Origin: Candidatus Thorarchaeota archaeon
Lineage (GTDB): Archaea > Asgardarchaeota > Thorarchaeia > Thorarchaeales > Thorarchaeaceae
Assembly: GCA_048884965.1 (NCBI GenBank)
Contig: JBHLQH010000039.1
Coordinates: forward strand, 1-25,232
Length of the DNA stretch: 25,232 nucleotides
Direction: 5' to 3'
Each line of letters starts with the position of its first letter. The stretch's first letter is position 1. The translations under genes and the position numbers were made by a program. Shown here piece by piece: positions 7,166-8,442 of this stretch. Under the pieces are notes generated by a model that worked only from the letters and a program-made list of their open reading frames with translations, was not told where the DNA came from and did no database searches.

Positions 7166-7210
7166 TTGGAACGGGAGCTAACCCGAAATTACCCCCTTTT
7201 GAAGCTGGAG

Positions 7211-7234
7211 CATATGTAACATATGCTGCATATG
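7211..7234. promoter_or_regulatory. Triple CATATG repeat with 9-bp period upstream of nptA (candidate PHO box)
   Basis: CATATG at 7211, 7220 and 7229; also inverted repeat AGCATATG-taa-CATATGCT (7209-7227). Lies 46-69 nt upstream of the nptA ATG. Confidence 0.75.
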
Positions 7235-7256
7235 TTTCTAGTGCAGTGATTAGAAA

Positions 7257-8282
7257 CTAGGTTCTATTGAAGGCAAACTCAATTATCCTGTTCATAGCAA
7301 CCTCAGCAATATCCTCACAGTATGATGCAATGCGACTTAAATGCAAAATTAGTAGAGTTTCACTGGCCGATAAATCATCCGAGGAACTGCCAATCTTGTC
7401 GAGTTGTGCTGATACCGTTCTTGTCTGTGTATGACTTGAGAATGCTTTCTTAGCATTTTCATCCGTCTTAGATTCGGAGGATTTACTTCTATCAATCCTG
7501 AAGAAGATGCTGGTTGTTTCATTATAGGCATCAAGAAGTTTCTCACAAATCCTAATTAATTTCGAACGTATTCTTTCGATCTTCAGTAACTGCTCAATAG
7601 CAGAACAGATGTGATCCGCAATCCGTTCTATGTATTTCGCAGCCAGACTGAAATGGAGTGCATCGGGAGGACTAATCTCTATTCTTCTTGCATAGCCCGG
7701 ATTCTGAAGGGCTAGATGGCACAATCTTTCGACGAAATACCGATGTCTGTCCACATCCTCATCTCTATCAATGATCCTTCCAGCTTCCTGATGTTCGCCA
7801 GACTTCATCACATCAATTAGGCTAGTTAGCATATACTTCACTGTTGAGAACTGCCTTTTAAGAATCGGAAAGATGACCTGTTTCTCACTTGTATCGCTGA
7901 TTATGATGCTATTTCCCATTTCTTCTAAGATTTCAAAACCAGGAAGTCTTCTTACCCACTGGCTGATGTCCTCTCGAGTCTTTATATCCAAGTCTTCTGC
8001 AAACAGTAGCTCTAGCTCTCCAGCTCCTACGATATAGGATCCTATGAGTATCATAACAATGCTATCTATACTTGATTCATCAATTTCATACTTGACTCGT
8101 TGAGATGAATGAAACTCGAACTCAGGAGGAAATATCCTCAAAGTCCCTTCAAGTGTTTGCTCGATTTTGACCTCTGAATCCTTTGATAATTTGTAGGTAT
8201 CGCACCAAGTTCTGGGAAGATACACATAGAATGAGTTCCGAACTTGATTCAGCTTTCTGGTCATTGTTGAAGTAGTTTCCAT
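7257..8282 (-). CDS. phoU: Archaeal phosphate uptake regulator: AbrB/SpoVT DNA-binding domain plus PhoU domains
   Basis: N-terminal 'RKLNQVRNSFYVYLPRTW' (AbrB-like), 'LPGFEILEE', PhoU motifs DEDVDR, YIERIADH, RIASYCEDIAE. ATG 8282 preferred over GTG 8345. Confidence 0.88.
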   Translation of the reverse strand: METTSTMTRKLNQVRNSFYVYLPRTWCDTYKLSKDSEVKIEQTLEGTLRIFPPEFEFHSSQRVKYEIDESSIDSIVMILIGSYIVGAGELELLFAEDLDIKTREDISQWVRRLPGFEILEEMGNSIIISDTSEKQVIFPILKRQFSTVKYMLTSLIDVMKSGEHQEAGRIIDRDEDVDRHRYFVERLCHLALQNPGYARRIEISPPDALHFSLAAKYIERIADHICSAIEQLLKIERIRSKLIRICEKLLDAYNETTSIFFRIDRSKSSESKTDENAKKAFSSHTQTRTVSAQLDKIGSSSDDLSASETLLILHLSRIASYCEDIAEVAMNRIIEFAFNRT

Positions 8283-8295
8283 CTCTAGTCCCGAC

Positions 8296-8313
8296 TTGTA
8301 AATGTTGTAAATG
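8296..8313 (-). promoter_or_regulatory. 9-bp tandem repeat (CATTTACAA x2 on the minus strand) in the regulator's promoter region
   Basis: TTGTAAATG at 8296-8304 and 8305-8313, 14-31 nt upstream of ATG 8282. Same period and similar hexamer to the CATWTG boxes. Confidence 0.5.
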
Positions 8314-8418
8314 CAATAAAGAAGTTGTCTCTGAAATCGTTCCACATCAAGATTATGATTTCTTACTTTCCTATTGTTCTTGAATATTTACAAAGAGATT
8401 GTGCTTCTTGTAGCATTT

Positions 8419-8442
8419 CATATGAAACATTTGCTACATTTC
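8419..8442. promoter_or_regulatory. Second candidate PHO box in the divergent regulator/pstS intergenic region
   Basis: CATATG-aaa-CATTTG-cta-CATTTC at 8419/8428/8437, 19/24 identical to 7211-7234. Overlaps palindrome TTTCATATGAAA (8416-8427) and inverted repeat TGTAGCA (8409-8415)/TGCTACA (8432-8438). Confidence 0.7.

Follow-up and report, generated by a model that had tools for sequence, protein, structure and literature searches.

Tandem CATWTR boxes at a Thorarchaeota phosphate locus as candidate operators of an AbrB/MazE-PhoU regulator

In the genome of a Candidatus Thorarchaeota archaeon, arrays of short (G)CATWTR(C) boxes repeated with a 9-bp period lie in the intergenic DNA around the gene of a predicted regulator, which combines an AbrB/MazE-like N-terminal domain with a PhoU domain and is flanked by the phosphate transporter genes pstSCAB and nptA. 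The window, i.e., the whole stretch of DNA analyzed, is 25,232 nucleotides long (contig JBHLQH010000039.1, positions 1 to 25,232 of the forward strand, GenBank assembly GCA_048884965.1), and the genome to which it belongs (G000) comprises 4.09 Mb and is 95.7% complete. The sequencing runs listed for this DNA are all of sediment-metagenome DNA, and none is of RNA. Comparison with related genomes supports the view that the arrays are a conserved cis-element specific to the phosphate locus, and very probably they serve, at the DNA level, as the switch for an archaeal phosphate response independent of the bacterial PhoR/PhoB system. On the grounds of adjacency, conservation, and co-loss, the arrays are predicted to be operators of the adjacent AbrB/MazE-PhoU regulator, a reading to which we assign a probability of about 0.7. 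In the best reading of the data, pstSCAB-phoU, nptA, and the regulator's own gene would belong to one small and local regulon for phosphate uptake in Thorarchaeota. The original prediction had envisaged a 9-bp-period phosphate element next to the AbrB-PhoU gene, together with a wider regulon and a general Asgard box; the first part has stood (35 of 38 loci and 68 box pairs, see below), while the other two have not.

Three arrays are found in the locus. The nptA-proximal array, CATATGtaaCATATGctgCATATG, is composed of three CATATG boxes with a 9-bp period at 7211-7234 and lies between the stop codon of the regulator gene (7257-7259) and the nptA ATG (7165-7163), 46-69 nt ahead of the latter; a box at the TATA position, CTTCAAAAG, follows about 6 nt downstream of it. 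Site A (CATATGaaaCATTTGctaCATTTC, 8419-8442, plus strand) has the form CATATG-aaa-CATTTG-cta-CATTTC, three 9-bp units reading toward pstS, and is located inside the 288-bp divergent region that extends from the regulator ATG (8282) to the pstS ATG (8571). These two 24-bp arrays, both intergenic and identical at 19 of 24 positions, are present exactly where they had been reported. A further array in the regulator's own promoter had been overlooked: site B (CATTTACAACATTTAC, 8298-8313, minus strand), CATTTAC-AA-CATTTAC, consists of two 9-bp units reading toward the regulator and ends 15 nt before ATG 8282, and its word CATTTACNNCATTTAC occurs only once in the whole genome. The repeated unit had been described as a CATWTG palindrome, but a direct repeat of (G)CATWTR(C), the unit refined with a position weight matrix (PWM), fits better, since the non-palindromic CATTTAC units make the arrays direct repeats. 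Apart from the boxes, GTTTCTA...TAGAAAC forms a perfect inverted repeat of 7 bp around a 10-nt loop (7234-7240 and 7251-7257), which overlaps the regulator stop codon and abuts the third CATATG box of the nptA-proximal array; possible readings are a terminator-like hairpin lacking a T-run and a site for another protein.

The tandem arrangement, not the single word, distinguishes these sites. Isolated CATATG occurs near chance, with 9 copies in the window against 8.4 expected and 1534 in the genome against 1454 expected, and the window copies elsewhere are, as had been stated, isolated and within open reading frames (ORFs): five single copies, one of which (2617) falls in an ORF of 77 codons. 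The pattern CATWTGN3CATWTGN3CATWTS, allowing up to two mismatches, has four matches in the window, all at the 7211-7234 and 8419-8442 arrays, compared with 0.01 in 100 dinucleotide shuffles of the window, a chance estimate to be read with the caveat that the three-unit pattern was defined post hoc from these two arrays. With no mismatches, it is found in the 4.09-Mb genome only at the nptA-proximal array and site A. In a genome-wide PWM scan, the nptA-proximal array gives the best score (26.4), and ranks 1, 2, 4, 5, and 6 among 8.2 million positions fall within this 1.3-kb stretch.

The arrays are conserved in other Thorarchaeota. The regulator has orthologues in 16 related genomes at 41-75% identity, 14 of which are encoded divergently from pstS, and the divergent layout recurs in most of 38 further Thorarchaeota loci. 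A Gibbs sampler applied, with no prior information, to 16 orthologous pstS/regulator intergenic regions returned CATATG-A(A/T)N-CATTTAC as the best motif, corresponding to site A and directed toward pstS, and GCATTTACAGCATTTAC as the next solution, corresponding to site B and directed toward the regulator; thus, unbiased motif discovery upstream of related pstS genes recovered the same 9-bp-period motif. Orthologues of site A keep the same orientation in most of the 38 loci, and GCATTTACAGCATTTAC is located 14-33 nt before the regulator start in the relatives. Indeed, at least one CATWTR-N3-CATWT pair is present within 350 nt upstream of the regulator in 35 of the 38 species-level loci. In total, the upstream regions (13.5 kb) contain 65 box-pair matches and the flanks (187 kb) contain 3, of which two come from the nptA array of one relative (G006). 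Counts are given here instead of a probability because the related genomes compared are not independent samples. Likewise, in a pattern scan of 26 genomes, every genome with a regulator orthologue has a match within 250 bp of that orthologue, and the total number of matches is about three times that of a reversed-pattern control. Since the intergenic sequence surrounding the boxes is not conserved, the boxes stand out as a phylogenetic footprint.

The geometry is equally sharp. Among same-strand pairs of CATWT cores in the upstream regions, 68 are spaced at 9 bp, and only 1, 8, and 3 are spaced at 8, 10, and 11 bp, respectively; the flanks contain 4 pairs at 9 bp in 186 kb. An array has two to four units with the 9-bp period, and its non-palindromic units are oriented toward the gene that they precede. 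Furthermore, boxes and regulator tend to disappear together: in three genomes (G042, G011, and G008), the regulator gene is gone, pstS is placed directly beside the methylase gene, and no box pair precedes pstS, and the same absence of both the regulator gene and the box pair before pstS is seen in a fourth genome (G020).

The boxes occupy defined places relative to the promoters. On the pstS side of most relatives, site A is followed after 12-15 bp by a second element, CATGTGnnGTTCATG, an inverted CATG-N7-CATG, and after about 6 bp more by a CTTAAyT box; a GGAG-type ribosome-binding site and then the ATG come about 55 nt past this box. Anchored listings of the orthologous regions place the equivalents in the window at 8448-8477 on the plus strand, where a degenerate copy of the second element (8448-8461) is followed by the likewise degenerate T/A-rich box CCTTTTTGAAT, at a distance from the pstS ATG longer than that in the relatives. 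The CCTTTTTGAAT/CTTAAyT box is likely the TATA region of pstS, and the CATGTGnnGTTCATG element may be a second type of operator or a part of the B recognition element (BRE) region. Site B, on the other hand, spans roughly -22 to -31 from the regulator ATG in the window. As for nptA, the linked copies of G000 and G006 have three to four phased boxes (four units in G006), with a TATA-position box following 6-8 nt downstream, the linked copy of G013 has two boxes 11 bp apart that end about 20 nt before the ATG, and the linked copy of G023 has no boxes.

The candidate reader of these boxes is the protein encoded at 7257-8282 on the minus strand, predicted to be an AbrB/MazE-PhoU regulator from Pfam (PhoU) and fold comparison and consisting of 341 amino acids from ATG 8282. 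A comparison of orthologue N-termini places its start at ATG 8282 or 8264 instead of GTG 8345, because the N-terminus is conserved: TRKLNQVRNSFYVYLP is kept across 17 orthologues. On the 362-amino-acid ORF, PhoU (8.4e-15) is the sole Pfam match above threshold, and a profile of the 17 orthologues finds PhoU structures in the PDB. The N-terminal part of an AlphaFold2 model of the regulator, with a predicted local distance difference test score (pLDDT) of 85 for the model, is a beta-beta-beta-alpha-beta-beta unit; an alpha/beta domain occupies the middle, and the third part is a helical bundle matching the PhoU crystal structures 2i0m, 1t72, and 4q25 (Foldseek, template modeling score to target 0.6-0.7). 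The C-terminal PhoU bundle that characterizes the AbrB-PhoU family, for example TK2245 and HVO_2374, is therefore present in the regulator by both Pfam and Foldseek.

For the N-terminal domain, a MazE/AbrB-like identity is faint in sequence and agrees with the predicted fold. When it was folded alone, its top Foldseek match was MazE (probability 0.96, root-mean-square deviation 2.3 A, 34% identity over 44 residues), and further top matches were VapB, Sso7c4, C68, AbrB, and SpoVT; the top nine all have E values above 0.1, and these matches, individually non-significant, are mutually consistent with a MazE/AbrB-like fold. A search of NCBIfam gave no model for this domain. In addition, the regulator aligns over its full length with a paralog encoded on another contig of the genome (C7:7956-8969, minus strand; L038 1957-2970), an AbrB(MazE)-PhoU protein 25% identical to the regulator, whose MazE/AbrB domain passes the Pfam cut-off. 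This paralog gene, which is present in nearly all of the relatives, is located between a phosphoglucomutase gene and the gene for the small subunit of PolD. The pst-linked regulators of Thorarchaeota form an orthologous group of their own, 25-31% identical to other AbrB-PhoU proteins. Prediction of an N-domain homodimer gave a score of 0.54 versus 0.00 for the best control. Among proteins of solved structure, 20 of 30 one-chain pairs reach this mark, compared with 1 of 23 single chains. Agreement between the runs extends to at least 95% of contacts, the partner pLDDT is at least 74, and the pass may come from the likeness of the domain to solved AbrB/MazE dimers. Taken together, the regulator looks like a DNA-binding phosphate sensor. 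The PhoB-type domain Trans_reg_C (PF00486) has no match in the 95.7%-complete genome, while control genomes do match.

From these features, a mode of working can be proposed. A pair of N-terminal domains would make up a single swapped-hairpin module for DNA binding, of the kind known from AbrB, MazE, and MraZ and in line with the predicted dimer, and every such module would read one (G)CATWTR(C) box. Several modules would be held together by the PhoU and middle domains, and two to four boxes at the 9-bp period would therefore be bound cooperatively. The PhoU bundle, in turn, would couple binding to the phosphate status, either directly or via the Pst/PhoU transporter complex. In the regulator's own promoter, the boxes extend over positions -22 to -31, the expected place of a TATA box or a start site, and binding there would lead to negative autoregulation. 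At pstS and the linked nptA, the arrays would act from upstream of the likely TATA box. This upstream position is usual for archaeal activators and also allows blocking of transcription factor B (TFB), so that activation and repression are rated about equally likely at these two promoters.

Several observations weigh against this assignment. The AbrB/MazE nature of the N-terminal domain is faint in direct searches, with the MazE_antitoxin match at residues 13-52 of the regulator staying below the Pfam threshold (E 0.023) and the 17-orthologue profile finding an AbrB/MazE/SpoVT chain in the PDB only weakly (E 0.43). Three of the 38 loci (L100, L111, and L112) have the regulator and no clear box pair. 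The co-loss of regulator and boxes is weak evidence, because sites A and B share the intergenic stretch of the regulator and one deletion removes both. A 9-bp period sets successive boxes on different faces of B-DNA, so that wrapping or distortion of the DNA would be needed, and we know of no solved precedent for boxes phased at 9 bp. Finally, genomes that lack the regulator still have a single CTTCATATG box upstream of unlinked nptA genes, and CATATG-like words in Thorarchaeota can thus also be plain core-promoter elements, a point taken up below.

One alternative accepts a true operator of the phosphate locus and assigns it to another factor encoded elsewhere, the AbrB-PhoU protein being a transporter-associated, PhoU-like modulator or a chromatin protein. 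The AbrB-PhoU protein TK2245 of Thermococcus was indeed recovered as a chromosome-associated protein and not as a specific regulator (PMC7325993), and the genome encodes the second AbrB-PhoU paralog on contig C7. However, boxes in the regulator's own promoter, as found in most species, are a hallmark of autoregulation, the box pair is missing where the regulator gene has been lost, and the region upstream of the C7 paralog has no CATATG-type boxes. Binding by another factor is thus considered unlikely.

According to a second alternative, the boxes are unusual core-promoter elements, such as TATA/BRE variants or phased bendable DNA, that are read by the TATA-binding protein (TBP) and TFB. Site B does overlap the -22 to -31 zone of the regulator, and in 11 of 14 relatives an unlinked nptA gene has one (A)AGCTT-CATAT(G/A/C) box (CTTCATATG; CTTCATAT(G/A/C)) at about -33 from the ATG, i.e., at the TATA position, even where the regulator is missing. 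Because of its presence in genomes lacking the regulator, this single box is read as a probable core-promoter element, and it was rejected as independent support for the regulon. The tandem arrays behave differently. CATATG is not a general promoter word in this genome: upstream of 1313 genes it is found at 0.88-fold, whereas TTTAAA, TTAATA, TTTATA, and CTTAAA reach 6-7-fold, and the words most enriched there are CTTAAA, TTTAAG, and TTTAAA. Moreover, most relatives have a separate canonical CTTAAyT box about 35 bp downstream of site A, and from general knowledge of archaeal promoters, tandem 9-bp phasing of two to four units has no role in TBP binding. A core-promoter role for the arrays as a whole therefore appears quite improbable.

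A more elaborate version of the operator model can also be imagined. One phosphate-sensing AbrB-PhoU oligomer would have opposite effects according to where its boxes lie: from arrays ahead of the TATA box it would activate the high-affinity pst operon, and from boxes in the TATA/start zone it would silence its own gene, perhaps together with that of the YjbB-like NptA-PhoU carrier; the 9-bp phasing would force DNA wrapping, and the orphan N6/N4 methyltransferase would modify CATATG, resulting in a methylation-sensitive switch. We give little credence to this combination in its entirety.

CATATG is a palindrome of the type modified by such methyltransferases, and a last alternative would make the CATATG palindromes targets of the syntenic orphan N6/N4 enzyme, with the arrays acting mainly via their methylation state; the N6_N4_Mtase gene is a conserved downstream neighbor of the regulator and stays by pstS after regulator loss, but this synteny may come from simple inheritance within one family, the genome as a whole shows neither depletion nor enrichment of CATATG (observed/expected 1.05), and the conserved units are mostly CATTTAC or CATTTG instead of palindromic CATATG, all of which makes it very unlikely. 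Restriction avoidance acting on CATATG is rejected as well, as the word occurs at its expected frequency. The methyltransferase gene itself (4660-5505, minus strand, Pfam) is found downstream of the regulator in most Thorarchaeota (L002-L017, L076-L113, and L116-L119), and nptA has apparently been inserted between the two in some genera only.

With the arrays taken as operators of the AbrB/MazE-PhoU regulator, the regulon appears to be small. Hits at phosphatase, polyphosphate, and phosphonate genes had been anticipated, but in PWM and pattern scans, pstS, the regulator, and nptA are the only genes with strong sites. The next PWM candidates, C3:110045 and C32:16891, are both placed beside genes without a link to phosphate. 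The former, GCATATGAAGCATATG (C3:110045-110066; L115 2546-2567), is the best box pair outside the locus (PWM score 23.1) and lies about 70 nt upstream of a 94-amino-acid ORF without a family; it is a possible extra member of the regulon. This ORF is located downstream of a 192-amino-acid unknown ORF and a CitMHS/ArsB-type permease. The C32:16891 site is located between a PALP enzyme and a giant ORF. Other two-unit matches in G000 adjoin genes for pyruvate formate-lyase, a PALP enzyme, eIF2-alpha/STT3, and small unknown ORFs, and extra matches in the relatives adjoin unrelated genes, such as those for AP endonuclease-fold/PNPOx proteins, MazF, Bmp/hydrolase, and glycosyltransferases. No box was found in the 500 nt before the PHO4 transporter gene, most of which are taken up by the gene upstream, and no PPK1 was detected in the genome. 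In one genus, conserved box pairs are located between divergent genes for a xylose isomerase-like TIM-barrel protein (AP_endonuc_2) and a PNPOx-like flavoprotein (L045, G009:C29:79349-79404; L046, G024:C167:4014); in this genus, the regulator is unlinked from pstS.

The remaining genes of the locus are arranged as follows. The nptA-like gene (5549-7165, minus strand), located downstream of the regulator on the same strand, encodes a Na/Pi cotransporter fused to a pair of PhoU domains, according to Pfam (Na_Pi_cotrans 3.7e-52 and PhoU 1.6e-26) and NCBIfam (Na/Pi symporter). Divergent from the regulator, the pstSCAB-phoU cluster on the plus strand, assigned by Pfam, starts with pstS (8571-9632) and continues with pstC (9660-10709), pstA (10710-11657), pstB (11657-12421), and a phoU ORF (12279-13118). 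Directly after this operon, a Ras/Roc-family small GTPase gene (Pfam) is encoded on the minus strand (13115-13639). GTPases of the Ras family are typical of Asgard genomes, and the presence of one beside pst-phoU fits an Asgard origin of the contig; a GTPase-like ORF is apparently located upstream of the regulator in two other loci (L013 and L014) too, as judged by eye.

To our knowledge, phosphate sensing in archaea, organisms without PhoR/PhoB, is largely unexplained beyond promoter work in one haloarchaeon, and AbrB-PhoU fusions have so far been only predicted regulators. The boxes described here provide a sharply defined, conserved, and specific candidate DNA target in Asgard archaea, the closest prokaryotic relatives of eukaryotes: three sites in 1.3 kb, a 9-bp geometry, and a clear candidate protein. 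Because the sites, the geometry, and the candidate protein are defined, the question is directly testable with recombinant protein and 60-bp oligonucleotides, even though the organism is uncultured.

How do these arrays compare with known systems? The bacterial PHO box has an 11-bp period, made of a 7-bp repeat and a 4-bp spacer, and is read by the winged-helix proteins PhoB/PhoP. The arrays share with it the tandem direct repeats in front of phosphate genes such as pstS, as well as the inclusion of the regulator gene in the regulon. They differ from it in the period, with 68 pairs at 9 bp versus 3 at 11 bp, and in that no Trans_reg_C protein was found in the genome. Another parallel is the operator of MraZ, a member of the AbrB superfamily, which has three to four short boxes with 6-nt spacers in the mraZ promoter itself; structurally, each box is bound by one AbrB-type cradle, and oligomerization makes binding cooperative and allows autoregulation (PMC12957436). 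Tandem short boxes in the regulator's own promoter are common to both, and the Thorarchaeota loci likewise have two to four tandem boxes at about one helical turn, including the regulator's own promoter. The MraZ boxes, however, are GTG(G/T) with a 10-bp period and are bound by rings of a protein with two AbrB repeats per chain, in contrast to CATWTR, 9 bp, and a PhoU partner in Thorarchaeota.

A further comparison is offered by Halobacterium salinarum. Both pst promoters of this organism (pst1 and pst2) contain pho boxes (Furtwangler et al. 2010, as summarized in PMC6560208), which are reported to be required for induction and are ascribed to PhoU regulators. Here, too, a cis-element is placed in the promoters of Pst transporters in an organism without PhoR/PhoB. 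The same combination, namely boxes in a pst promoter with a gene for a PhoU-domain regulator nearby, is found in the window and in 35 of the 38 loci. The Thorarchaeota boxes, predicted from sequence comparison, are distinguished as CATWTR direct repeats with a 9-bp period that are found in Thorarchaeota only. A motif of such form had been thought undescribed. The full-text literature search agrees in that no description of a CATATG/CATTTAC motif, nor of a characterized Asgard phosphate regulator, was found, but archaeal pho boxes as such were already known from H. salinarum, as summarized in PMC6560208.

The box had also been proposed to be general to Asgard or other archaea, which is not borne out: CATWTR is the Thorarchaeota form, and four other Asgard AbrB-PhoU loci (L021, L022, L024, and L029) carry CTATATAG or ATATAG boxes at most about 100 nt away from the start of the regulator. 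The core of these is C-TATA-G, compared with C-ATAT-G or CATTTAC in Thorarchaeota, and the two types of core offer a natural specificity swap for studying how swapped-hairpin domains read DNA. Because other Asgard loci carry the CTATATAG type, the Thorarchaeota boxes are, on present sequence comparison, a lineage-specific variant of the emerging archaeal pho-box theme rather than a new kind of system.

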